DNA of 11,747 nucleotides, from contig SKZA01000299.1 of assembly GCA_007127595.1 (NCBI GenBank), positions 1-11,747 on the forward strand. The letters are read 5' to 3'. The notes below the pieces were generated by a model. That model worked only from the letters and a program-made list of their open reading frames with translations. It had not been told where the DNA came from and made no database searches. Positions 1 to 11,657 of this stretch are shown piece by piece. Every line of letters starts with the position of its first letter. The first letter of the stretch is position 1. A program made the translations under genes and the position numbers. The DNA is from Kiritimatiellia bacterium. GTDB lineage: Bacteria; Verrucomicrobiota; Kiritimatiellia; SLAD01.

Positions 1-2
1 AT

Positions 3-1514
3 GGGGTGATTATGGGGCGGGCTGTGGAATCGCTGGCGCCGACGCCTTTGGCGGAACTGCGCAAAAGAGCGAATCAAGGATTGCTGCGGGCCTTGTCCAA
101 GAACCCATCAACCCGGTTCCCAGGGTGCAGCGAGTTTGTGAAATCCTTACAGAGCAATCCTCGAAGTGTGTCTGAGTGGGCGGCGTCACCTAATCGCGTA
201 GCGGTGACCGGTATTGTGATCGCTGGCGTTATTGTTGGCATCTGGTTGAGTGCGAACGCGCGTAAAGACAAGTTGGCAGCGGGACCTTTACCTGAGCAGA
301 CCGCTGTGGAGCGCCCTATTGAGATCGAGGGGAACGCTTTGATGCGGGATCAAGGGGATCCGGAAATGTCTCCATCCATGCACCTACTTGAGGCGGAGCA
401 TGTTGAGGATGAGACAATAGAGCGAGGGCGTATGGCGGCGGGCCCGTCTCTGTCGGCTTCGGATCAGGCCGAAAAAGCCAGGGAGTCGCTGCGTGCTCAA
501 GCTGAGTCGCATCGTGCTGCGGCATTGGCGGCTCGCGAAGAAGCGGTCGAACAGAAGGCGGAAGAATGGGCCTCACATCTTTGGCGGCTGGCCGACGACG
601 AACTGCGACTCGCGGATCAGGCTTACGCGGATGATCGTTTTGCCGAGGCGACGACACGTTGGGCGAGTGCCGTGCATGGATACATGGCCGCCCAAGAGTT
701 GGCGCAGCGGACAGAGCTGAAAGAGAAAGCAGAGCAAGCCCGACGTTCCGCCGAAGCAGTGCGACAGCGCGCCGAGGCTGCCGGTGCCGAGCAGTTCGCA
801 GCGAGATCATGGCGGTTGGCGGAAGCATCCATGACGGCTGCGGCGGACCATGCTGGCGAAGGCCGTTACAGCGATGCAAAACGTGAGTGGGATGCTGCCC
901 GGGACGCCTACGAGGCTGGCCGAACTTCAGCCATGAATTATCAGCGGGAACAACGAAGACAGCAGGAATTAGCCCGCGTCCGAGAATCGGCCGAGCGTGC
1001 CCGGGAAAACGCGATTGCTGCGCGTCGTGCTGCGGAAGAGGCTGATGCGGTTGATGACGCTGCAGCCTTATGGCGACAAGCAATCGCTCAGATGGAAAGT
1101 GCAAGTGCCGCCACTGATGATCATCGGTATGCGGAAGCGGAGAGCGACTGGCTTGCTGCTGAAAAGCTGTTTTTTGAGGCGCGACATGAGGCTGAGGGCA
1201 TCCGTCAGCATCGCGAAGAGCAGTTGGCCGCTCGTCCTGCGGCTCTGACATCGCAACAAACAGCAGCGTCGTCCCGGCGTGCGGCTGAACGAGTGAATGC
1301 AGAACACGAAGCGAGTACGGCTTGGCGACGGGCCACGGCGGCACAAAGAAGAGCGGAGACTTTTATGGCAGACCAACAATTCAGGGATGCCAGGCACGCA
1401 TGGGAACAAGCGGCTACACACTTCAACGAGGCCGCTCAAATAGCGCGTCACGCGCAAGAAAATCGTGAGGCGATCGGTAGGAGGCCACCGCCCGTTTTGC
1501 CTCCCTCATTCTGA
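3..1514 (+). CDS. Ser/Thr protein kinase, 3' portion (5' end lies outside the window). It holds the end of the kinase C-lobe, one TM helix (aa 65-83) and a roughly 400-aa extracytoplasmic Ala/Glu/Arg-rich helical repeat domain
   Basis: The open frame reaches the window edge, and the ORF track begins at GTG 6. Residues 'LLRALSKNPSTRFPGCSEFVKSL' match Hanks kinase subdomain XI (LxRALAKDPxxRyxSAxEF). The hydrophobic stretch VAVTGIVIAGVIVGIWLSA follows. Four repeats follow, each of form W-R-x-A...R-Y/F-x-E/D-A...W-x2-A-x3-Y/F-x2-A. Stop TGA at 1512-1514. Confidence 0.7.
   Translation, partial: GVIMGRAVESLAPTPLAELRKRANQGLLRALSKNPSTRFPGCSEFVKSLQSNPRSVSEWAASPNRVAVTGIVIAGVIVGIWLSANARKDKLAAGPLPEQTAVERPIEIEGNALMRDQGDPEMSPSMHLLEAEHVEDETIERGRMAAGPSLSASDQAEKARESLRAQAESHRAAALAAREEAVEQKAEEWASHLWRLADDELRLADQAYADDRFAEATTRWASAVHGYMAAQELAQRTELKEKAEQARRSAEAVRQRAEAAGAEQFAARSWRLAEASMTAAADHAGEGRYSDAKREWDAARDAYEAGRTSAMNYQREQRRQQELARVRESAERARENAIAARRAAEEADAVDDAAALWRQAIAQMESASAATDDHRYAEAESDWLAAEKLFFEARHEAEGIRQHREEQLAARPAALTSQQTAASSRRAAERVNAEHEASTAWRRATAAQRRAETFMADQQFRDARHAWEQAATHFNEAAQIARHAQENREAIGRRPPPVLPPSF
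564..1445 (+). repeat. Four protein-level repeats of about 46 aa at a period of about 84 aa, inside the kinase extracytoplasmic domain. The defining Trp residues are at aa 188/218, 269/295, 356/382 and 440/466
   Basis: The translation was aligned by hand. Unit 1 is EEWASHLWRLADDELRLADQAYADDRFAEATTRWASAVHGYMAAQE. Unit 2 is FAARSWRLAEASMTAAADHAGEGRYSDAKREWDAARDAYEAGRT. Unit 3 is AALWRQAIAQMESASAATDDHRYAEAESDWLAAEKLFFEARHEAE. Unit 4 is STAWRRATAAQRRAETFMADQQFRDARHAWEQAATHFNEAAQIAR. Confidence 0.6.
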
Positions 1515-1524
1515 TGAGCAAAGA

Positions 1525-2334
1525 TTAGAATGTGACAAATCCATGCAGTACCCAGCCCGATAGATCAAGTCGGATTTTGTACACTTCAGGGGCTGAGTAA
1601 GCGCCTAGCTCGTAACGATACCCTCCTCGAAGGCCGAACCCACTTCCGCGTCCAATCGATTGAGCCACCTGAATGCCCGCCTCTCCAACGAGACTAATTC
1701 TTTGCGCCCGGTCGAGGCCGCTTTTGCTATTCCCGAGACCAGACAACGAGCCGGATAGGTAAGCGTCCACCCCCGCCAGCCCAAGCGGAAAGGAGGTCCC
1801 ACCGCCCAGTCCAAGACCAAAAAGTTTCAAGTCTTCCCTCACCAGTTCCAAGGCCTCATTCTGATTATTAGCGCGAAGAGCGATTAAATCGTGCGATCCA
1901 TACCTGAGGCCAATCGCAAAATGTCCGGCTTCACCGAAGGTTATCCATGACAAGTCGACCAGATCAAAGGATCCGGAAAAATCAACAGTGCTGGATCGAG
2001 GAGACGTGCGAGGAATCGTGTCTCGGGTAGCAGTTCCCTGCGCAAAAGCATCAAAGGCATATCGTTGATACTCTAGTCGAAACCCTTGCCCACTATGAAT
2101 GTCATATTGCCAAATATGGGAAACCGTCAGGAATAAGGCTTGGTCCATATCATAATTCAATCGAGCGAGTTCAAGTGAGTCCCCGCTGCTTAGTGCGCGC
2201 AACGACGCGCTTGCCGATGGCTTAAAGTAGCTCCCTCCCACGATCCAGCGCCCCAAGGCTAGACACTCGCGAGTTTGCAGGAAAACGACAAATGCGATGA
2301 TCGCGATTCGCAGCAAAATTCTGTTTGTCCGCAT
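1525..2334 (-). CDS. Outer-membrane beta-barrel protein (269 aa) with a signal peptide
   Basis: ATG at 2334 is preceded by AGGGAGA. The N-terminus MRTNRILLRIAIIAFVVFLQ is a typical signal peptide. Gly/Ser/aromatic-rich alternating amphipathic segments follow, and the protein ends in a C-terminal Phe (…HGFVTF*), the classic outer-membrane protein signature. The upstream part of ORF 1525..2400 begins at a non-Met position. Confidence 0.7.
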   Translation of the reverse strand: MRTNRILLRIAIIAFVVFLQTRECLALGRWIVGGSYFKPSASASLRALSSGDSLELARLNYDMDQALFLTVSHIWQYDIHSGQGFRLEYQRYAFDAFAQGTATRDTIPRTSPRSSTVDFSGSFDLVDLSWITFGEAGHFAIGLRYGSHDLIALRANNQNEALELVREDLKLFGLGLGGGTSFPLGLAGVDAYLSGSLSGLGNSKSGLDRAQRISLVGEAGIQVAQSIGRGSGFGLRGGYRYELGAYSAPEVYKIRLDLSGWVLHGFVTF

Positions 2335-2401
2335 AGACAATCTCCCTTCATTGAGAGAGTAGTAGTTACATTTACTTCCGTCGATGATAATAGCCCGCAT
2401 C

Positions 2402-2423
2402 CAGCGGCGAAAAATCGCCGCTG
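2402..2423. other. Perfect 8-bp stem with 6-nt loop: CAGCGGCG-AAAAAT-CGCCGCTG
   Basis: Read directly from the sequence. It lies in the 365-nt gap between the two outer-membrane protein genes, about 68 nt upstream of the 1525..2334 gene start on the minus strand. No U-tract follows on either strand, so it is not a clear intrinsic terminator. It could be a 5' UTR structure or an operator. Confidence 0.3.
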
Positions 2424-2498
2424 CCTTCTGGCCTGAACACTTGCCACTCTTCCTGTGTGGTATATATCAATAAGTATATCTTTTAGTGGGGCGAATTT

Positions 2499-2692
2499 AT
2501 GGTTACGACAAAAGTGTTTCAGTCAGGACGGAGTCAGGCGGTACGGGTGCCCAAGCGGTATCGTTTCCGATCAAAGGAGGTCAATGTTCTGGCGACGCCA
2601 ATATTCAGACCCCGACCACGCTGGCAGACGACACGCGCCTAACTTCTCCACACGGGTCTTGGTCGCCTTCCCGCATCACGGCCCGCCAATAA
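2499..2692 (+). pseudogene. Orphan VapB/VagC-type (SpoVT/AbrB-fold) antitoxin remnant, probably frameshifted, with no toxin gene downstream
   Basis: ATG 2499 gives MVTTKVFQSGRSQAVRVPKRYRFRSKEVNV…, which closely matches the VapB/VagC N-terminal consensus M-x-TT-K-v-F-x-s-G-n-S-Q-A-V-R-l-P-K-x-f-r-F. That frame stops at 2640-2642 after 47 aa. The -1 frame continues …SGDANIQTPTT…SW… to 2692, matching the expected 'GDxxIxxP…W' continuation. This implies a 1-nt indel near 2570-2585. The adjacent gene at 2700 is an unrelated minus-strand outer-membrane protein. Confidence 0.45.
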
Positions 2693-2699
2693 CGCGTGG

Positions 2700-3386
2700 T
2701 TAAAACTCCTGCCGAAAACCAATCTCGACAAAGGGCATCGTAGTCTTCTCATCAAAGTCACCGCCCTTGAGCTGTTGGTGGCGGTAGCCGATGGCGAAGA
2801 AGACGGTACTGTCGGCTACGATGGTGTCCATAATCATGGAATAGGCTAGGCCTCCTTCGTAGGCCCATAACACGGCGGTGCCGTCGCTATCGTCCACGTC
2901 GGTCTTCATGCGCATGGGCGCGACCCGGGTGCTGCCGAAGACGAAGAAGCCGGAATAGCCGAGCGGCACACTGCCTTCCAAGCCGATTCCCGCACCAATC
3001 CCGGTGGTCTTGATGTCGCGCTCCAATTCATCCAATGCGCCTTGATCCAAATCCTGCCAGAGATAGCGAAGGTTGGCGAAAAGGCGAAAGGAGGGGGCAA
3101 TATTGAAACCAACCAGCAACTCAAAATCGGCCCGGTCCAACTTGCCGATGGAACCATAGGCGGCATCCAATCCGACCACGAATTGATCGCGATTACCAAA
3201 GTCGTATCGGATCGTGGGCCCGAACTGGACGCCATCCTCCTGTGCCCGTTCATCAAAGAGACTTTTCTCTTCCCAGTCCATGAAGCTCAACCGGAATCCG
3301 TAGGCGGCACTGTCGGCGCGGGTCGTCGTGGCGACCACCGAAAAGATTATTGCGGTGGCAGACAACATCATCATCGTCTTCTTCAT
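2700..3386 (-). CDS. Outer-membrane beta-barrel protein (228 aa), small OmpA/OmpW-like barrel
   Basis: ATG 3386 is preceded by AAGGAGAT. The signal peptide is MKKTMMMLSATAIIFSVVATTTRA. Alternating hydrophobic beta-strand pattern throughout. The C-terminus is …GFRQEF*. Confidence 0.7.
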   Translation of the reverse strand: MKKTMMMLSATAIIFSVVATTTRADSAAYGFRLSFMDWEEKSLFDERAQEDGVQFGPTIRYDFGNRDQFVVGLDAAYGSIGKLDRADFELLVGFNIAPSFRLFANLRYLWQDLDQGALDELERDIKTTGIGAGIGLEGSVPLGYSGFFVFGSTRVAPMRMKTDVDDSDGTAVLWAYEGGLAYSMIMDTIVADSTVFFAIGYRHQQLKGGDFDEKTTMPFVEIGFRQEF

Positions 3387-3410: not shown

Positions 3411-4106
3411 TTACCGCGGTCGGGTCGTGGCTCGCAGGATACTGCGCAACAGCCATACGACGACAATCGCGGCAACGAGAATGGCGACGCCCCAAATGAG
3501 TTGGGTGCTGTAGTGGAACAGAAAGTCGCGGGGCGAGAGCACGGCCTCGCCGGTATAGATGCCACCGGCCAGTTGCTCGCGGGTATCGACCCGGGCGAGA
3601 AAGACTTGCACGCGCACGATGGTGCGCAGCCAGGTATGTTCGACCGACCGGACATGACCCAGCAGAATGGCGTCGGCGCCAATCGTCGTCTCGGGAATCC
3701 CAGCTTCCTCGGTCCACACGATTGTGGCGCGATTGAAGATGTCCCCGTAGCCTTCATCGGGATCCGTGCGGGCCAGTTCCCGTTCAATCACGTTCCAGAC
3801 CGATCCGCCCAATGTGACGATGCGTATGGCGTCGAGCCGGGTCATCTTGCCTTGTAGAATCGAGCTGAGATTACCGGGATCGCGGTCGAGTCGAACAATA
3901 CCGACCCGCTGTACCGCCTCGGCCTTGGGATCGGCCTGAAGGTCCGCAACCCACTGATCAAAAGCCCGTTCGGCAGCCAGATCAATATAGCGATCGACAA
4001 TGGGGCCGCTGGGTCCCTCGATGCGTTGGGCGCTGGCTGTGGCGGACCACAGCAGCAGGCCGGCGATTACTGTCGTTATCCATACGGTTTGAGTGGTCAA
4101 TTTCAT
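3411..4106 (-). CDS. Periplasmic protein (231 aa) with an N-terminal signal peptide and a C-terminal TM anchor, possibly with a CsgG/LpoB/FlgP-like fold
   Basis: ATG 4106 is preceded by AAGGAAAC. The signal peptide is MKLTTQTVWITTVIAGLLLWSATASAQ. The segment 'RVGIVRLDRDPGN…LSSILQGKMTRLDAIRIVTLGGSVWNVIERELA' resembles the conserved N-terminal motif of CsgG/LpoB/FlgP-family periplasmic proteins. This is a tentative call made from memory. The C-terminal hydrophobic helix LIWGVAILVAAIVVVWLL is followed by the basic tail RSILRATTRPR. Confidence 0.6.
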   Translation of the reverse strand: MKLTTQTVWITTVIAGLLLWSATASAQRIEGPSGPIVDRYIDLAAERAFDQWVADLQADPKAEAVQRVGIVRLDRDPGNLSSILQGKMTRLDAIRIVTLGGSVWNVIERELARTDPDEGYGDIFNRATIVWTEEAGIPETTIGADAILLGHVRSVEHTWLRTIVRVQVFLARVDTREQLAGGIYTGEAVLSPRDFLFHYSTQLIWGVAILVAAIVVVWLLRSILRATTRPR

Positions 4107-4131: not shown

Positions 4132-5043
4132 TTATTTATAACGCGAAACGTTGCGACGCAGAACATCCATGCGGCCGGGCTCGTAGCGGGAGGGGCGAAT
4201 ACCCAGCTGAGGGATTTCGCTGAGTAGCTGGGCGATGTCGGCCTCATGTTGCAGCCCATAAATCACCTCGTAGGTCGCCACACGGGATTCCTGGTCCCAA
4301 GCCAAAAGCTCAACATGATCGACGTAGTCGCGCTGTTCCAGCATCAGTCGGATGTGCTGGGCTTGGGCCATGTTGGGCACTTGATTAATCACAATGGCGG
4401 CCCACAACAGTTGATCGGATTTTCGCATCAGGTCGCGGATCAATTCATCGACCAGCGGCGAGGCCAATTGTTCCAGGGCCGCCCGGCCGGCGCGCAGACT
4501 GTCCTGACGGCGGGGACCATTATCCTCCAAACGGTTAGAGGCCAGCAGGGTCCCGTCCCGCCCTCGAATCGCTTTCACATCGGCGACGGCGCGATAGCGG
4601 GTGAAGTGACCGGTGGAATTCAGGAATTCGCTGCGGGCGTCGATGTCGATCACCAAATGAGCGCCGGTTCGCCGTGTAAGCTCGGCAATGGAGCCGGCCG
4701 GTGTGACGGACCCGGTGAAGATACGAAAATCCCGCTGCACCAATCCGCGTTCCAAGGCTTGGCCGATTTCGCTAACATCCGTTTGCCCGCCTTGCGCATC
4801 AATGACGCGTTCATTGCTGCGAATAACCGTTCGCAATTTGCCAAAAGAAATGAATTCACCCGACATCTCCTCCGCTTCGATGGGGTCAAGCCGGGGGGGC
4901 GATTCGGTCGGCGGTGGCGTCACGCGGGCGCGCGGAGGGGGCGCGGTTCCCGGGCGTGCGGTTCCGCATCCGGTCAAGAACACCGTGACCAGTGCGAGTG
5001 GGGCCAATATCAGCCAATCCCTGTATGTGCTGCGTCTTTTCAT
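4132..5043 (-). CDS. Lipoprotein (303 aa) of unknown function
   Basis: ATG 5043 is preceded by GGAGAAG. The lipobox is …LVTVFLTGC. A Pro-rich linker (PPPRARVTPPPTESPP) follows, then a globular region of alternating hydrophobic pattern (…AHLVIDIDARSEF…). It ends 25 nt before the next gene start. Confidence 0.7.
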   Translation of the reverse strand: MKRRSTYRDWLILAPLALVTVFLTGCGTARPGTAPPPRARVTPPPTESPPRLDPIEAEEMSGEFISFGKLRTVIRSNERVIDAQGGQTDVSEIGQALERGLVQRDFRIFTGSVTPAGSIAELTRRTGAHLVIDIDARSEFLNSTGHFTRYRAVADVKAIRGRDGTLLASNRLEDNGPRRQDSLRAGRAALEQLASPLVDELIRDLMRKSDQLLWAAIVINQVPNMAQAQHIRLMLEQRDYVDHVELLAWDQESRVATYEVIYGLQHEADIAQLLSEIPQLGIRPSRYEPGRMDVLRRNVSRYK

Positions 5044-5079: not shown

Positions 5080-6705
5080 TTATGAATTCGGCGGGTCCGA
5101 CCATGAGTTGTGCGGACCCACATCCACAATCTGGCCGCCGATGTATAGGGTCTTCCCATGCGTCAACCATTCCTTCTGTTTGCCGTCAACAAGCAGGAAA
5201 CCATCTTGCATTCGGCAGATCCATGCGTCGGTATCCGACCATTGCAAATCACGGCAGGCCACGGCTTCCCATAAAATCACATGCGTCACCGGTACATGGC
5301 GCGAACGCAGCACCAGGCTGAGCGCTTGATGATCGGCCTTGTGTTTGAGTTGCTTAAAGGGCGTGTGCCGCGCTTTGTCGCGGGTCTGTTGATAGCCCTC
5401 GAACACGTACGCGTCGGGTTCTTGATCACTGCCGGCCAGCGTCAGGGTAAAGGCGCGGTCTTTGGGTAAGGGACTGCTGCCGCCCGGCTGGACACGTTGC
5501 CCGTCCAGATACGTTCCGTAGGCACTGGGTTTATCGGTTCCCTGGTCGGGATAATAACCCAAGTCAACAACCGAACTGCGACCGCCGCGCCGCTCGATCC
5601 GGCAATGATAGCGACTGATTGCGGCGTCGCGCTCTTTCTCTTTTCTGGAACTGCCGGACCGGGCCACGATGGGACATTTACGGTTCTTGCCAATCTGAAT
5701 ATCGTCACCGGACAGCAGTTGAACGATTTGGGCGCCGCATCGAAGCGTTAGGTAGGGAAAGTGGGCATTGGCCGGTTGCGCCGGGATGCCGTCGCTATCG
5801 TCTTCCTCCAGGTCATTGCGTTTGCATAAGTGAAGATTGAGGTTGTTCCAGCAGGCGGGGATGTCGATGGCCGCCAGTTCGGTGACCGGATTGTCCTCTT
5901 TCGGGCGCAAGGCTTCCAAGCCGTCCATGTGCTGCTTGATCACATTATCGGCGGCGCCTTCAGCTTTGAGGTTGTTGTTGATCTCGATCTTGAGGCTGCT
6001 AATCACTGCACTGACTTTTTCAAAGCCGCGGAAGATCGTATGCGTGGGGCGGGCTTTGAATACTTGCCGTGTCTTCCGGCTGTCGTAGCCGATATAGATT
6101 TCAAAACTGATAATGCCTTGTAGGCCGGGCGGCGGACGATACGCCATATGAATATCGAGGCGCCGATGCGCAAATAACATCTCGTCCGGTTCCTCACGGG
6201 CGACCGGATTGCCATTCCGCCGGATTTCAATGAAGAGATTGGTTAAATGACTTTCTTGCGGGGTAATCCTGAATTGGAACGGGACATGCAGGCCATCCAT
6301 AAACACCCGGCTAAAGTTATACTCGACGCGCAATTCCTTGCAGTCCGACACCGGCGGTATCGCGGGGGACGTCTGGTTCTGTGGCGCTCGGGTATGGTCG
6401 TCACCGGCTTGATCCCGTGCCGCAGTGCTCGCTTCAGTCGGTAGCTGTTCGGTGGTCAACCCAATCGCTTGTTTGGCTTTATCCCAGATGGCGCCGGCCG
6501 TTTTCGCCGCCGCGTCCACGGACGACGCCTCATCGGTAGGCGCGGGGAGAGGCGGCTTTGGAAGTGGCGTAGCCGACTCAGCGGAGGCCGGCATCGCAAT
6601 CGGCGCGCGATCCGGCTGACTTAAGTCTGCCCCGCACGAAGAGCACATCCGGTCCCCATCCGGTGTCGGCATCGCGCAGGCGGGGCATCGACGGATTTCG
6701 CTCAT
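5080..6705 (-). CDS. Zinc-ribbon and FHA-domain protein (541 aa). It has an N-terminal Cys4 ribbon, a Pro-rich linker, a roughly 250-aa uncharacterised central domain, an FHA domain and a roughly 110-aa C-terminal extension
   Basis: ATG 6705 is preceded by GAGGA. The N-terminus is MSEIRRCPACAMPTPDGDRMCSSCGADL (CxxC…CxxC). The FHA signature is …IQIGKNRKCPIVARS…ISRYHCRIERRGG…VVDLG…SAYGTYLDGQRV…FTLTLAG, carrying the G-R…S-R-x-H…S-x-N/G-T core. Spacing to neighbouring genes is 35-54 nt. Confidence 0.8.
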   Translation of the reverse strand: MSEIRRCPACAMPTPDGDRMCSSCGADLSQPDRAPIAMPASAESATPLPKPPLPAPTDEASSVDAAAKTAGAIWDKAKQAIGLTTEQLPTEASTAARDQAGDDHTRAPQNQTSPAIPPVSDCKELRVEYNFSRVFMDGLHVPFQFRITPQESHLTNLFIEIRRNGNPVAREEPDEMLFAHRRLDIHMAYRPPPGLQGIISFEIYIGYDSRKTRQVFKARPTHTIFRGFEKVSAVISSLKIEINNNLKAEGAADNVIKQHMDGLEALRPKEDNPVTELAAIDIPACWNNLNLHLCKRNDLEEDDSDGIPAQPANAHFPYLTLRCGAQIVQLLSGDDIQIGKNRKCPIVARSGSSRKEKERDAAISRYHCRIERRGGRSSVVDLGYYPDQGTDKPSAYGTYLDGQRVQPGGSSPLPKDRAFTLTLAGSDQEPDAYVFEGYQQTRDKARHTPFKQLKHKADHQALSLVLRSRHVPVTHVILWEAVACRDLQWSDTDAWICRMQDGFLLVDGKQKEWLTHGKTLYIGGQIVDVGPHNSWSDPPNS

Positions 6706-6759
6706 ACGGTCATCCTCAAGGCCGACAAATAGTTGGTTTCCAAGCGTATCATCACGGCA

Positions 6760-8457
6760 TCATTTTATGATTTGTTGAGTGCCGGCTCCGGGGTTCTTGG
6801 CGGCTTCCGCTGTGGTTTCCAACGCCTTCTGCATGATGCGCTCGACCCGGTCGGCGGCCTCGTCCAGGACCTGTTTGCGCTCGGTCCATTCCTTGTCGCG
6901 TTCATCGCTCTTCGCTTTTTCCTGCTCGAGCAGGACACGCGCAAGGTCCGGGTTCTCTGCCGCATAAGCCGCCATTATTTCTTCCGGCGTCTTTCCGGCG
7001 GTTTGCATCTGCTTGTTCAGGTCCAGAAGGGATTGCCGTTTCGCCGGATCGTCAACTAGGCTGATCAAGGTGGCCAAATCAGCACCTTTACGGCTCTCAA
7101 TCCGTTGCGCCTCATCCTCGCGTGCCAGTTGGGCGCGGGCGGCGGCCTCGTCCCGCTCGATTTTTAGGCGCTCCTGCTCAAACTCCAACTCGAGCCGCCG
7201 CTTTTCCTGTTTTACCTTCAGCCACATTTGTGTGATGGCAACTTCGTTCTCTTCTTCCAAGCGTTTGGCTTCCCGGCTATACGCGTCGCCCAATTTCTTC
7301 AGGCCGATTTCGTTGGCCGTTTGCGCGGTGGCTTGGGCAAAGGCAAAGTCTGCCGCCTGCTTGTCAATTTCCTGACGATGCACCAGCCGCAGGAGGGCCA
7401 GTTCCTGAGTCCGGTGTTCCGTGGCCAAGCCCCGTTCTTGCGCCAATTGCGCGATGTATTCATTCAATTCCGCTTCCGACTTGAATTGATCCATCTTATC
7501 CGAGGCCAGCAGTTCGCGCAGACGCTGATCCAACTCGATCTGTCGCCGTTTCACCTCGACATCACCGGATTTCATCCGCAGCTCTTCGTATTCCTTGCCG
7601 GTGAACTCCGCTGCCGCCACGCGGATCAATTCCAATCCGTAACGGGGCAGTACATCCTTCATGGTTTGCGTCAGCGCATCTTCAATATGGAGTCGGCGTT
7701 GGGGGTCTTTGACCAAGTCTTCGATCGTCGACGTATTGGCGATGTTTTCCATCGCGTACCGGATCTCGCCGGTGAGCAGGGTCTCGATTTCCTGAAACGT
7801 TAGACGCTGATTGCCCTTGAATACGTTGGCCAGAAAGTCGGCCGCTTTCTTGTCAACGAAGTGAAACGCTACCTCCGTGTAAAGCTCAACCGGTATATCT
7901 TCCGCTGTGCGCAGGGCTTCTACCCGCAGCGGCAGGACGACGTCGCCGTTCTCCACCAGGACCACCGTGCGGGGCGGGGGATTGCCCCAATGATTGATCT
8001 TAAGCGCCATGCTTTCCGGGTTGTAGCGGCCGGGTGACAAGACATCCTTAAGCGCGCCACCATCCAGCAAAAGGGCGACAGTGCCTGCTTCGACAATTAG
8101 GCCGTCCTTCAGCATGGGCCGGATGTCACCGATTTCGAATCGTTCAGCCAACACCCCGCCCGGCCGTTGCCAGCGTCCACCGGCAATGCCGGCCCGCGTA
8201 TCTGGAAACAGCGGGGTACTGCAGTTCCAGCAGAAGTGCGACTCATTCCCGACCCACTTATTGCAGGTCGGACAACGCCACCATCCTCCGGGCGCACCCG
8301 CGCCGCACTGGCCGCAGAAGCGGGCGGCCTTCTTCACGCGATTACCGCAGCGCGGCGCTTTCGGATTTTGCCGGGCAGCCGTCAAGGCTTCGCCCGTCAA
8401 TACCTTTCCCGTTCGGGAATCGACCAATGCCTGACAACGATCTGAAAACAAGCCCAT
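6760..8457 (-). CDS. Double zinc ribbon, SPFH/Band-7 (flotillin/HflK-like) domain and long coiled-coil protein (565 aa), with no obvious TM segment
   Basis: Two in-frame ATGs occur (8463, 8457). AAGGAG lies 7 nt from the second. The N-terminus has CGNRVKKAARFCGQCG plus CPTCNKWVGNESHFCWNC. The SPFH-like region is …PGRYN…TAEDIPVELYTEVAFHFVD…TFQEIETLLTGEIR…GLELIRVAAAEF…. An E/R/K/A/Q-rich coiled coil of about 250 aa runs to the stop at 6760. Confidence 0.8.
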   Translation of the reverse strand: MGLFSDRCQALVDSRTGKVLTGEALTAARQNPKAPRCGNRVKKAARFCGQCGAGAPGGWWRCPTCNKWVGNESHFCWNCSTPLFPDTRAGIAGGRWQRPGGVLAERFEIGDIRPMLKDGLIVEAGTVALLLDGGALKDVLSPGRYNPESMALKINHWGNPPPRTVVLVENGDVVLPLRVEALRTAEDIPVELYTEVAFHFVDKKAADFLANVFKGNQRLTFQEIETLLTGEIRYAMENIANTSTIEDLVKDPQRRLHIEDALTQTMKDVLPRYGLELIRVAAAEFTGKEYEELRMKSGDVEVKRRQIELDQRLRELLASDKMDQFKSEAELNEYIAQLAQERGLATEHRTQELALLRLVHRQEIDKQAADFAFAQATAQTANEIGLKKLGDAYSREAKRLEEENEVAITQMWLKVKQEKRRLELEFEQERLKIERDEAAARAQLAREDEAQRIESRKGADLATLISLVDDPAKRQSLLDLNKQMQTAGKTPEEIMAAYAAENPDLARVLLEQEKAKSDERDKEWTERKQVLDEAADRVERIMQKALETTAEAAKNPGAGTQQIIK

Positions 8458-8469
8458 GACCATGCTCCT

Positions 8470-8820
8470 TTATTTCTTCTTCTCCGATTTCTTGTCCGTA
8501 TGTTCTTCGCAGGTGCGGATCTTTTTACGCGTCCAGCAATCATTGCAGATCGGCTCATCGCACACCTTGCACTTCTGTTGCACGGAGAGCCGGCTGTAGT
8601 AGCGCTTGCCACAGCTCGCGCAGCGCGTCTCCGGAGGATTGCGATTCGTCTTGCTTTGTTCGAGGTAGGCATGGAGGTCGGGGGTGGCGACACGGAAAAC
8701 GCGTCCGACGCGAACGGCGGGTAGCTCGCCGGAGCGAACCAGTTTGTAAATCAACTGATAGTTGACGCCGAGGACCTCCGCGACTTCTTCGAGCGATAAA
8801 AATGGCTTTTCCAGGGGCAT
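8470..8820 (-). CDS. Excisionase/MerR-family HTH DNA-binding protein fused to a C-terminal Cys-rich zinc ribbon (116 aa). It is the first gene of the operon and a putative regulator
   Basis: ATG 8820 is preceded by AAGGAC. The sequence 'LSLEEVAEVLGVNYQLIYKLVRSGELPAVRVGRVFRVATPDLHAYL' matches the excisionase-family HTH consensus (LT…EAAELLGVS…YRL…GELPA.R.GR..R…DL…L). The C-terminus is CASCGKRYY…CKVCDEPICNDCW…RTCEEH. The upstream 'M' at 8877 in the ORF track is a TTG inside a TTGACA -35-like box, not a start codon. Confidence 0.75.
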   Translation of the reverse strand: MPLEKPFLSLEEVAEVLGVNYQLIYKLVRSGELPAVRVGRVFRVATPDLHAYLEQSKTNRNPPETRCASCGKRYYSRLSVQQKCKVCDEPICNDCWTRKKIRTCEEHTDKKSEKKK

Positions 8821-8915
8821 AACCAAGTCCTTGATTAAATGTTTCTCCTGTTTATCTTTATTTATCTCTGGTGTCAATCAATTATTTTAAAACATTTTTG
8901 CACTTGGTTTATTTG
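8821..8915 (-). promoter_or_regulatory. AT-rich (about 30% GC) promoter island for the minus-strand operon. The candidate -35 is TTGACA (8877..8872), with a 17-nt spacer and a weak -10 TAAACA (8854..8849)
   Basis: Window GC is about 60%, and this 95-nt segment is about 30% GC. TTGACA was read on the minus strand. The first operon gene starts at 8820. Confidence 0.4.
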
Positions 8916-9716: not shown

Positions 9717-9774
9717 ATGCACTGAAACCGGGCGAGGTGGTCCCGGAGGGGCATCTCGGCGGGTGGGAATCGAT

Positions 9775-9821
9775 TTTCATTGCAACAAGGAGACGGAAGT
9801 GTCATTATGTTGCAATGAAAA
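9775..9821 (+). promoter_or_regulatory. Perfect 13-bp inverted repeat TTTCATTGCAACA-N21-TGTTGCAATGAAA spanning the abiEi RBS and start codon. It is the predicted AbiEi autoregulatory operator
   Basis: Left arm is 9775-9787 and right arm 9809-9821. The ATG at 9815 lies inside the right arm. The spacer holds AAGGAGA (9787-9793). AbiEi antitoxins are known to autorepress by binding inverted repeats in their promoters. Confidence 0.5.
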
Positions 9822-10453
9822 TTGAAGAGCTGCGAAATATCTTGGGCGACCAGGCGGTGTTCCGGACAGGAAACCTGCTGGCTGGGCAGGACGCGCCCGC
9901 CCATGTCCGGCGGCAATTGGCGCGGTGGGTGAAGGCGGGGAAAGTTATTCCGCTCCGTAGGGGACTCTACGTGCTGGCGGAGCCGTACGCGAAACAAACG
10001 CCGCATCCCTTCATACTGGCCAATGAAATGCGCCGGGCCTCCTATGTCAGCATGCAGTCGGCCCTTGCCTGGTACGGGTGCATTCCGGAATATGTGCCGA
10101 CGGTAACAAGCGTAACCACGGAACGACCGGAAGAAATAGAAAACGTCAAGGGCCGCTTTATCTTCCGTCATATCAAAAGAGATCTTCTGTGGGGCATGAC
10201 GCGGGAGGAGGTCGCGCCGGGCCAGATCGCGCTGGTGGCCTCTCCCGAAAAGGCCTTGATTGATCTGCTCTATCTAACAGCACACAGCGATGACGAGGGA
10301 TATCTTGATGAACTGCGATTGGATCCCGGGCACCGTCTATCGCCAGACCGCCTGATTGAGATGGCCGATCGCACGGGCTCCCAAAAAGTATTGCGCGCTG
10401 TTCATTACTTGGCCCGGGCATGGAAGCAGACGGAGGGGGGAGAGGATATATGA
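9815..10453 (+). CDS. abiEi: AbiEi-family antitoxin / transcriptional regulator (type IV TA), 212 aa
   Basis: MKIEELRNILGDQAVFRTGNLLAG…QLARWVKAGKVIPLRRGLYVL matches the AbiEi N-terminal wHTH motif (…L…G.l.R..RGvY.l). Its stop TGA at 10451-10453 overlaps the ATG of the next gene (ATGA). An alternative GTG start at 9737 cannot be excluded. AAGGAGA lies 21 nt upstream of ATG 9815. Confidence 0.75.
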   Translation: MKIEELRNILGDQAVFRTGNLLAGQDAPAHVRRQLARWVKAGKVIPLRRGLYVLAEPYAKQTPHPFILANEMRRASYVSMQSALAWYGCIPEYVPTVTSVTTERPEEIENVKGRFIFRHIKRDLLWGMTREEVAPGQIALVASPEKALIDLLYLTAHSDDEGYLDELRLDPGHRLSPDRLIEMADRTGSQKVLRAVHYLARAWKQTEGGEDI

Positions 10454-11253
10454 AGGATTTACTGCTGAATACCCTGCGTGATGAATCCGACGCCTTGCGC
10501 AAACGCAATCGGGCCCGCGAATTTCTGCAGGCGCGCATTTTGCTGTCCCTCCAGGATCAGGGTGCCTTCGCCAACTGGGCTTTTGTAGATGGGACAGCTT
10601 TGCGTTTTCTCTACGACCTGCCACGCTATTCCGAAGACCTGGACTTCTCGCTGCGGGCCCCCGGTGACGACGCCCGCTTCGCGTCCATCCTGCGGGCCGT
10701 TAAATCGGATCTCGTAGCCGAGGCGTACGAAGTGGACATCCGGGTCAGGGAGCAACGGACCGTCGCCGCCGCCATAATCAAATTCCGAGGGCTTCTCTAT
10801 GAAATGGACCTTTCCCCGCATCGCGACGAGACGTTTGCGGTCAAGGTGGAGATGGACACGAACCCACCGTCTGGCGCGGTATGTACGACGCGACTCGTGC
10901 GTAAACACTATCTGCTCCATCTCATGCAGCATGACCAAAGCTCCTTACTAGCCGGCAAGCTGCACGCCGTTTTGACGCGCAAATATACCAAGGGCCGGGA
11001 CCTATACGACTTGCTGTGGTATCTCTCGTCACCTGAATGGCCACCGCCGAACCTTGACCTATTGAGCGATGCCCTGGAGCAGACGGGTTGGGCTGGGGAG
11101 GCCCTGACGGAAACCGCCTGGCGGCAGGCGATCGCGGCACAACTCAAGAATATTGACTGGAAGCAAGCGCGTGAAGATGTGGCCCCCTTTCTCGAACGCA
11201 GTCAGGAGATCAATTTGATTGCGCCGGAACCCCTTGAACAATTGCTGAGATAA
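10450..11253 (+). CDS. abiEii: AbiEii/AbiGii-family nucleotidyltransferase toxin (DUF1814), 267 aa
   Basis: 'FVDGTALRFLYDLPRYSEDLDFSL' matches the AbiEii GGTAL…R.SEDLDF nucleotidyltransferase motif. The gene is translationally coupled to abiEi through the ATGA overlap. Confidence 0.8.
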   Translation: MKDLLLNTLRDESDALRKRNRAREFLQARILLSLQDQGAFANWAFVDGTALRFLYDLPRYSEDLDFSLRAPGDDARFASILRAVKSDLVAEAYEVDIRVREQRTVAAAIIKFRGLLYEMDLSPHRDETFAVKVEMDTNPPSGAVCTTRLVRKHYLLHLMQHDQSSLLAGKLHAVLTRKYTKGRDLYDLLWYLSSPEWPPPNLDLLSDALEQTGWAGEALTETAWRQAIAAQLKNIDWKQAREDVAPFLERSQEINLIAPEPLEQLLR

Positions 11254-11366: not shown

Positions 11367-11657
11367 ATGGACAAATCATTAGGAGATCAACCGACACCGC
11401 GACCGGCTGACGATCTGGGCGAAGGCATCGTCTCGATCGGCGAGGTCCTGACCCGCCGCCAGCGCGCTCGTCTGAAGGCGGGCGATGTGTTGCTCGGGCG
11501 CTACAAGATTTTGGGCGAACTGGGGCAGGGCGGCATGGGGCTGGTGTTCCGCTGTCTTGACGAGGTCTCAGGTATCGAAGTGGCCGTCAAGATGCTGCCA
11601 CCGGAAGTTTCCCGCGATTCCGAGCGGAAGCCGGGGTCGGACCACAGGTTTTTCTAG
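11367..11657 (+). pseudogene. Ser/Thr kinase N-terminal fragment (96 aa), truncated 22 residues after the catalytic lysine. The kinase domain does not continue in any frame
   Basis: …LLGRYKILGELGQGGMGLVFRCLDEVSGIEVAVKMLPPEVSRDSE… carries the Gly-rich loop and the VAVK motif, then a stop at 11655-11657. Neither downstream frame looks kinase-like. Confidence 0.5.

Follow-up and report, generated by a model that had tools for sequence, protein, structure and literature searches.

The stretch of DNA shown above (from here on "the window") comprises 11,747 nucleotides, positions 1 to 11,747 of contig SKZA01000299.1 from a Kiritimatiellia bacterium (assembly GCA_007127595.1). Its minus strand carries, at 5080..6705, a gene for a protein of 541 amino acids. 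The analysis described here changes the annotation of this protein from "hypothetical" or "FHA domain-containing protein" to that of a five-module adaptor, consisting of a zinc ribbon, a disordered linker, an Ig-like sandwich with helices, an FHA domain and a small beta domain. The adaptor is non-enzymatic, and is composed solely of interaction modules. On balance, it appears to be a cytoplasmic, phospho-dependent protein that couples an envelope module, encoded in the same operon, to an SPFH platform.

FHA adaptors are already known. They are the main readers of bacterial Hanks-kinase signalling, and few of them have known partners. What is new here is the architecture, and the conserved and undescribed operon in which it is found. 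The family gives a defined set of partners: an SPFH scaffold, a helix-turn-helix (HTH) protein, an LpoB-like protein with a conserved four-residue cytoplasmic terminus, and kinases in or adjoining the operon. A full-text literature search, including PMC10936438 and PMC11237479, found no description of this bacterial operon.

The family was collected with a HMMER profile restricted to residues 115-335, the central region, so that proteins sharing only an FHA domain could not swamp the search. This delivered 113 cluster representatives (at 50% identity) with E<=1e-3, 73 of which have E<=1e-10. Nearly all members are between 400 and 590 amino acids long and have the central domain at the same relative position. 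Judged by these sequences, the five-part architecture is a property of the whole family, which is unnamed and uncharacterised. Other searches returned less. A word-indexed protein search found three relatives only, and with a profile of 103 sequences it came back with the same four proteins again. Scans of genome and metagenome contig collections found no relatives; the deeper alignments have no stretch conserved enough for such scanning.

The structure was modelled with AlphaFold on an alignment of 103 members. The model has a mean predicted local distance difference test score (pLDDT) of 83.9 and a predicted template modelling score (pTM) of 0.68, with 312 residues at a pLDDT of 90 or more. 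It replaces an earlier model made from a four-sequence alignment, which at a pLDDT of 42 was unusable. In addition, 95 members were scanned with Pfam.

The FHA domain is divergent and spans residues 313-445 (5371..5769, minus strand). The Pfam FHA model (PF00498) matches residues 337-414 with 34.3 bits, where the gathering threshold is 20.7 (E=3.4e-8), and 84 of the 95 scanned members match it at E<=0.05. The modelled fold is a beta-sandwich that superposes on solved FHA domains. A preliminary description of this stretch had taken the gene to encode an FHA protein bearing a zinc ribbon at its N-terminus, and this naming is supported. The FHA motif passes its profile threshold, and the four cysteines of the ribbon are found in 81-84% of members.

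Across the 103 aligned sequences, the phospho-binding signature of the FHA domain is under purifying selection. G339 is present in 102 of them, H367 in 100, S364 in 98 and R349 in 94. Further along, G397 is found in 93 sequences, D381 in 92 and S394 in 90, with T398 the most variable at 63. Position 340 is always basic, with arginine in 76 sequences and lysine in 27; the window protein has the lysine. The canonical asparagine of the NG motif is an asparagine in only 17 sequences, and is Tyr396 in the window protein.

Two insertions interrupt this domain. The first is the loop before the SRxH motif (residues 350-363, 5617..5658, minus strand), between R349 and S364. It is 14 residues long in the window protein, while the most common length in the family is 16 (70 of 103), and a helix is predicted at 354-361. 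The SGSSRKEKERD stretch that had earlier been pointed out as an unusual insertion in the FHA core is part of it, and the insertion turns out to be the first of two that the whole family shares. The second, absent from the preliminary description, is the loop before the S-x-x-G-T motif (residues 382-393, 5527..5562, minus strand, LGYYPDQGTDKP). It puts 12 residues between D381 and S394, and is also found family-wide. In FHA structures generally, both loops flank the phosphopeptide site. From the conserved columns and these loops, the phosphate pocket is probably preserved and peptide recognition probably atypical.

The zinc ribbon lies at the N-terminus (residues 5-28, 6622..6693, minus strand) and has the pattern CxxC-x10-CxxC (CPAC-x10-CSSC), formed by C7, C10, C21 and C24. 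The pLDDT there is about 90. Pfam zinc-ribbon families (Zn_ribbon_3, DZR and Zn_Ribbon_1) match residues 6-28 below their gathering thresholds, for example Zn_ribbon_3 with 21.2 bits where 27 is needed, and another with 18.8 where it is 27.3. Such families match 33-38 of the 95 scanned members. The sequences without the four cysteines have gaps there and are N-terminally truncated.

Then follows a linker rich in proline, alanine, serine and acidic residues (residues 29-120, 6346..6621, minus strand). That a Pro-rich linker joins the ribbon to the central region had been noted before, and is borne out: the linker is predicted to be disordered, with a pLDDT mostly below 55, and across the family it contains 14.7% proline, 15.6% alanine and 9.7% serine. 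Its length varies from 20 to 144 amino acids. A helix at 66-80 is found in close relatives only.

No transmembrane segment, signal peptide or hydrophobic segment is predicted anywhere in the adaptor, which is therefore taken to be cytoplasmic.

Between the linker and the FHA domain lies a central region that had been presented as a large unassigned domain. It still has no named sequence family. Its fold, on the other hand, can be recognised. Residues 121-228 (6022..6345, minus strand) form a sandwich of nine strands with the fold of an Ig-like E-set domain of the DUF11/CARDB/ASH type. This is followed by three helices and a short strand (residues 229-295, 5821..6021, minus strand), with the motifs GHAxD and PxxWxxLxL, and then by an acidic connector (residues 296-312) leading to the FHA domain. 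The preliminary description had proposed running AlphaFold on this region, and the sandwich and helices are what came out of the model described above.

Fold searches with the adaptor model returned Ig-like sandwiches alone for the central region. The Foldseek matches include the C3/C5 MG domains, NBR1, TMEM106B, arrestin and the PapD-like domain of HYDIN. In addition, the family profile weakly matches P0071 and P0086, which are multi-repeat Ig proteins of the DUF11/ASH/HYDIN type. It does so once per repeat, with a periodicity of about 100 amino acids. The Pfam models of this E-set clan match none of the 95 members. The likeness to DUF11, CARDB, ASH/HYDIN-VesB Ig, complement MG and TRAP-alpha lumenal domains is thus one of fold. 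The Ig-like domain of the adaptor differs in being cytoplasmic, and in having a helical element and an FHA domain attached to it.

An enzymatic central domain, which would have given the protein a conventional annotation, was looked for and rejected. Outside the FHA domain and zinc ribbon, residues 30-335 and 415-541 have no match in Pfam, NCBIfam, PADLOC or the sequences of the PDB. The best PDB hit for the central region, a proteasome alpha subunit at an E-value of about 0.9, is a chance match. As modelled, the central region is not an enzyme but an Ig-like interaction module that is specific to the family and extended by helices.

The C-terminal domain (residues 455-535, 5101..5343, minus strand) is small and all-beta. 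It has the motifs LxLxRxDxxE...W and WLxPG, and is modelled with a pLDDT above 90 as some eight short strands in about 75 residues. The last 110 amino acids had been suggested to be a second, degenerate FHA domain. At the level of sequence profiles, this finds no support. An hhalign comparison of the C-terminal and FHA sub-alignments gives a probability of 0.8%, the modelled domain falls short of the 11-strand sandwich of 100-120 residues expected of an FHA domain, and Pfam FHA does not match the C-terminal region of any of the 95 scanned members. A PDB profile search delivered chance matches only (SmrB/YfcN, E=0.25). A Pfam match to TagH_C (E=0.012) is also considered to be chance, because it recurs in only 2 of the 95 members. 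Together with the Ig-like-plus-helical module, this domain makes for two newly defined sequence families for which there is no Pfam model.

A detail of this domain is that between 30 and 50% of the family have cysteines at the positions equivalent to 442, 456, 463, 481, 495, 497 and 511. The window protein retains C497 alone. To go by these columns, the window's lineage may have lost a site for a metal or a disulfide.

The operon that contains the adaptor also lies on the minus strand. It starts with an excisionase-type HTH_17 gene (8470..8820, or 8470-8877), the product of which has a Cys-rich C-terminal tail. The second gene (6760..8457) encodes 565 amino acids with a double zinc ribbon, an SPFH/Band_7 domain and a long coiled coil, without a transmembrane segment. 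The adaptor comes third, with GAGGA 7 nucleotides 5' of its ATG. Next are a lipoprotein of 303 amino acids (4132..5043), which has a signal peptide and an LTGC lipobox, and a tail-anchored periplasmic protein of 231 amino acids (3411..4106). The latter consists of a signal peptide, a periplasmic domain, one C-terminal transmembrane segment and a cytosolic tail that ends in ...TTRPR. An outer-membrane beta-barrel protein of 228 amino acids (2700..3386) is last; its Pfam match, OMP_b-brl with E=1.6e-4, is below the gathering threshold. Gaps between the genes are 6-54 bp, and no terminator-like site was found between the operon genes on the minus strand of the window.

The Cys-rich part of the HTH_17 protein reads CASCGK...CKVCDEPICNDCW...CEEH and has weak matches to FYVE and zf-CRD. 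Given this tail, the operon's three cytoplasmic proteins all carry Cys-rich zinc modules.

The loci compared are that of the window (L001), L002 to L004, L005, L006, L007, L008, L009, L011, L013, L014 and L015/L016. The gene order is HTH_17, SPFH/Band_7 (about 550 amino acids), adaptor, lipoprotein and tail-anchored protein, and this order is kept while the identity of the adaptors falls from 69% to about 22-25%. The HTH_17 and SPFH genes precede the adaptor in all nine independent loci that extend far enough upstream (the contig copy L004 being an exception). Likewise, in 10 out of 10 loci with downstream sequence, L008 excepted, the next genes are those of the lipoprotein and the tail-anchored protein.

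Homologues of the SPFH partner number at least 202 at E<=1e-30. Their NCBI names are Verrucomicrobia, Kiritimatiellia or Kiritimatiellae, and Lentisphaerae or Lentisphaeria, which places the system in the Planctomycetes-Verrucomicrobia-Chlamydiae (PVC) superphylum. Verrucomicrobia, Kiritimatiellia and Lentisphaeria are noted for their unusual envelope and membrane biology.

The envelope genes come in two variants. In variant A (the window, L002, L005, L006, L007 and L013) the lipoprotein has 300-312 amino acids, the tail-anchored protein 229-232, and a barrel of about 228 amino acids follows. This barrel is conserved in L002, L006, L007 and L013; the contig of L005 ends inside the third gene, where its identity as a barrel is unconfirmed. 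In variant B (L009, L011, L014 and L015) the lipoprotein is 244-273 amino acids long and the tail-anchored protein 363-371, and there is no outer-membrane barrel. The two pairs are weakly homologous (E-values of 1e-4 to 1e-5); the lipoprotein of the window has this weak homology to variant B lipoproteins of 259-273 amino acids. The tail-anchored analogue in L015 matches Pfam LpoB above threshold, with 27.7 bits versus 22.3.

Some loci have an extra gene within the operon. Between the SPFH gene and the adaptor, L007 has a zinc-ribbon protein of 416 amino acids (6754-8004) and L008 an HExxH protein of 310 amino acids (2080-3012), with a Peptidase_U49 match that is below threshold (E=0.034). In L015 there is a trypsin-like protease (15264-16199). 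It is possible that these are optional proteolytic components in some loci. The inserted genes of L007 and L008 were also considered as paralogues of the adaptor and rejected as such, the zinc ribbon being the sole shared part.

With a lipoprotein, a tail-anchored protein and an outer-membrane protein, the composition of the operon is envelope-spanning. This raises the idea that these three form a conduit, and that the adaptor is the FHA gatekeeper of a secretion system, like Fha1/TagH of the type VI secretion system (T6SS) or the cytoplasmic domain of YscD/PrgH in the type III secretion system (T3SS). Kinase-FHA control does regulate the H1 T6SS, and Yop-YscD_cpl, a member of the FHA clan, matches 9 of the 95 scanned members. 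Yet neither the window nor the 10 related loci were found to hold T3SS, T6SS, secretin or ATPase core genes. The adaptor also has no transmembrane segment, and the outer-membrane protein, which variant B does without, is a barrel of small size (about 228 amino acids). A secretion role is for these reasons considered very improbable.

What the envelope module does expose to the cytoplasm is the end of the tail-anchored protein. Each of these 10 proteins combines a signal peptide with a single C-terminal transmembrane segment and a cytosolic tail of 7-12 residues. The genes, apart from that of the window, are at 12499-13194 in L002, 5878-6573 in L005, 10539-11234 in L006, 10516-11205 in L007 and 7962-8660 in L013, and for variant B at 4953-6053 in L009, 12414-13505 in L011, 7639-8754 in L014 and 14148-15248 in L015. 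In 10 out of 10 the tail terminates in [ST]-R-[PAV]-R-COOH. The window protein has ...RATTRPR there; six of the ten have the threonine and four a serine. Because it is the only part of the envelope module exposed to the cytoplasm, this tail would be the evident physical connection with the three proteins that are cytoplasmic. It may be a docking or phosphorylation site that joins the two.

Hanks kinases are the other recurring neighbours. A Pkinase gene is found within about 5 kb in all nine loci with enough flanking sequence, and in L009, L011, L014 and L015 it is co-directional with the operon genes and downstream of them. As an association, the link between operon and kinases is well supported. 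In the window, positions 1..1514 of the plus strand are the 3' part of a convergent gene for a Hanks-type kinase of 791 amino acids. This part covers the end of the kinase domain, one transmembrane segment and a helical-repeat extracytoplasmic region. The best matches of this kinase are L007_k739 (43%) and L002_k727 (42%), and in both only the kinase domain aligns. The L002 match is divergent and upstream of its operon, and the L007 match lies 2.5 kb downstream.

A phospho-dependent adaptor would work as follows. At least one membrane Hanks kinase encoded nearby would sense how the envelope is doing and report this by placing a phosphate on a threonine. This threonine could be in a partner protein, in the adaptor's own linker, or in the cytosolic [ST]RxR tail. 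The FHA domain would dock on this mark, and the docked adaptor would couple the envelope module to the SPFH platform beneath the membrane. The output might be transcriptional, through the HTH protein. In relatives that have Snf7-like and AAA genes, it could also be membrane remodelling or repair.

A number of things weigh against this. In the window protein, Lys340 takes the place of the phosphate-contacting arginine and Tyr396 that of the canonical asparagine, so that binding by this particular protein may be atypical or even phospho-independent. FHA domains discriminate against phosphoserine, and four of the ten tails have a serine. The linker is only slightly raised in threonine (5.9% versus 4.3%). 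The convergent kinase does not keep its place from locus to locus and is not an operon-linked orthologue. These genomes are also rich in kinases, 21 kb holding as many as 6 of their genes, and the position and orientation of the kinases vary. The window's own 21-kb contig was found to have neither a Snf7 nor an AAA gene. Finally, the phosphorylated partner, the ligands of the FHA, Ig-like and C-terminal domains and the physiological output are all inferred, as is every functional step above.

Much of this would fit a scaffold that does not depend on phosphorylation. Its FHA domain would serve structure or oligomerisation and bind a partner that is not phosphorylated, for instance the RxR tail or the coiled coil of the SPFH protein, and the nearby kinases would be incidental. 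The enlarged loops would do the binding, and indeed the two large insertions do reshape the binding loops. The asparagine column is variable in the family as well as being replaced in the window protein, and both the serines in the tails and the unconserved position of the kinases are in keeping with this idea. However, the near-invariant G339, S364 and H367, plus a basic residue at 340, are the pattern to be expected of a working phosphate pocket, and there are kinases near all loci with flanks, four times co-directionally downstream. Such a scaffold is therefore held to be unlikely.

It had been claimed earlier that the protein reads threonine phosphorylation by a Hanks kinase, with the convergent neighbour as the candidate. 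The first half of this is plausible, on indirect support. The G-R/K and S-x-x-H signature and the kinases within some 5 kb speak for it, the substitutions at 340 and 396 in the window protein do not. Going by the family-wide signature, the adaptor probably does depend on phosphothreonine. The second half fares worse, and the convergent kinase is best seen as one candidate writer among others.

The closest known kind of protein is the FHA scaffold under the control of Hanks kinases, such as FhaA (Rv0020c), GarA and the FHA modules of Rv1747 in Mycobacterium tuberculosis, and Fha1 of the Pseudomonas aeruginosa T6SS. Compared to these, the adaptor has a zinc ribbon, an Ig-like sandwich and a C-terminal beta domain. 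It also has the two family-wide loop insertions, an NG asparagine that is not conserved and an obligate operon with an SPFH gene. The N-domain of the FhaA type (DUF3662) has no Pfam match in the adaptor or in the family members scanned. Furthermore, those scaffolds are from Actinobacteria or Proteobacteria, whereas the adaptor is from the PVC superphylum.

In three of the 10 related loci the operon is longer. L011 (13514-15514), L013 (9559-12619) and L015 (16260-19050) add genes for a Cys-rich coiled-coil protein and for a Snf7-like protein. The Cys-rich protein has 313-342 amino acids, with an N-terminal Cys-rich finger, a long coiled coil and a mutual identity of 38-50%. The Snf7-like protein has 208-217 amino acids and is 52-71% identical across the three loci. 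Its Pfam Snf7 matches are all just below the gathering threshold of 27.3 bits, with E=6.9e-6 (26.3 bits) for L011, 3e-3 for L013 and 5.5e-5 for L015. In L015 the match covers nearly the full length of the protein. The top PDB match of the Snf7-like protein is yeast Snf7 (E=0.34). Its C-terminus (ELDARL...RVKKLL) may resemble a MIT-interacting motif.

The operons of L013 and L015 also include a classical single-domain AAA ATPase of 365-367 amino acids. The two are 55% identical and closest to the D2 domain of VAT/Cdc48 (E=1.7e-93), and no MIT domain was detected in them. In L011, an AAA gene is found only beyond a kinase and a retroelement, further downstream.

[quoted passage not shown] It would be the bacterial counterpart of archaeal ESCRT variants linked to FHA proteins and kinases, and the Snf7 and AAA genes would be elsewhere in the genome of the window. 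This extension is possible, if rather doubtful. If the link does hold, control by phosphorylation becomes directly testable for an ESCRT-III-like system in bacteria, in parallel with the archaeal FHA-linked variants.

Those archaeal variants are known as Halo_FHA, where the FHA protein arCOG13166 is found with Vps4, ESCRT-III and Ser/Thr kinases and phosphatases (PMC10936438). The parts are the same as those in L011, L013 and L015, namely FHA, a Ser/Thr kinase, an ESCRT-III family member and AAA. This likeness is one of parts lists. The Halo_FHA protein is archaeal and has a CdvA-like C-terminus, whereas the adaptor is bacterial and has an Ig-like domain. A further difference is that the AAA protein of the related loci has Cdc48/VAT D2 as its nearest match, with no MIT domain detected, and that the contig of the window lacks both Snf7 and AAA. 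Another group of archaeal loci, Meth_adaptin, contains zinc-ribbon SPFH proteins with a coiled coil (PMC10936438), and has this zinc-ribbon SPFH protein in common with the operon.

Among bacteria there is the ydjFGHI-type operon of Bacillus subtilis, with PspA, the zinc-ribbon protein YdjG and the SPFH protein YdjI, for which a role in envelope stress has been proposed (PMC11237479, PMC10936438). Here too, a sub-membrane SPFH scaffold is encoded with zinc-ribbon proteins and a protein of the ESCRT-III superfamily. In contrast to the operon described here, ydjFGHI has no FHA protein or Hanks kinase, and its ESCRT-III member is PspA and not Snf7-like. The SPFH protein of the window in turn differs by having N-terminal zinc ribbons and no transmembrane segment.

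The surroundings of the operon also bring anti-phage defence to mind. An overlapping type IV toxin-antitoxin pair adjoins it in the window (9737-11253, plus strand), made up of an AbiEi-like antitoxin with a sub-threshold Pfam match and an AbiEii nucleotidyltransferase toxin (E=1.5e-22). The HTH-SPFH-FHA trio could then be the sensor or regulator of a conflict system with variable effectors. The HTH protein does resemble an HTH of the MAD1 type, and L007 and L008 have extra genes inserted between SPFH and adaptor. There are also AAA_14/DUF4143 genes and a diversity-generating retroelement nearby in L011 and L002. The retroelement of L011 (bAvd plus reverse transcriptase, 18673-20369) is directly 3' of the operon-linked kinase. 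Finally, within the same loci the SPFH partner is 45-57% identical and the adaptor 22-37%. From these identities, the adaptor evolves at roughly twice the rate of its partner.

Even so, PADLOC-DB v2 matches neither the adaptor nor the SPFH protein nor the envelope proteins, and for the first gene gives only the generic HTH match (mad1). The Peptidase_U49 match in L008 is under threshold. In 10 loci the operon keeps a stable link with envelope proteins of a housekeeping-like kind (lipoprotein, LpoB-like protein and outer-membrane protein), and with flanking genes that change from locus to locus, no consistent defence island emerges. Defence is thus regarded as quite improbable, and coupling of the envelope module to the SPFH platform stays the preferred reading.

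Two further open reading frames in the window deserve mention. About 365 bp past the outer-membrane barrel, at 1525-2334 on the minus strand, is a predicted exported protein of 269 amino acids without a Pfam match. It is found on this contig only and may be outside the operon. The other, at 11367-11657 on the plus strand, starts like a Hanks kinase (YKILGELGQGGMGLVF...VAVKML) and stops after 96 amino acids, and from 11485 on another frame is open. A truncated kinase gene, one with a frameshift, or a mistake in the assembly could each account for this.

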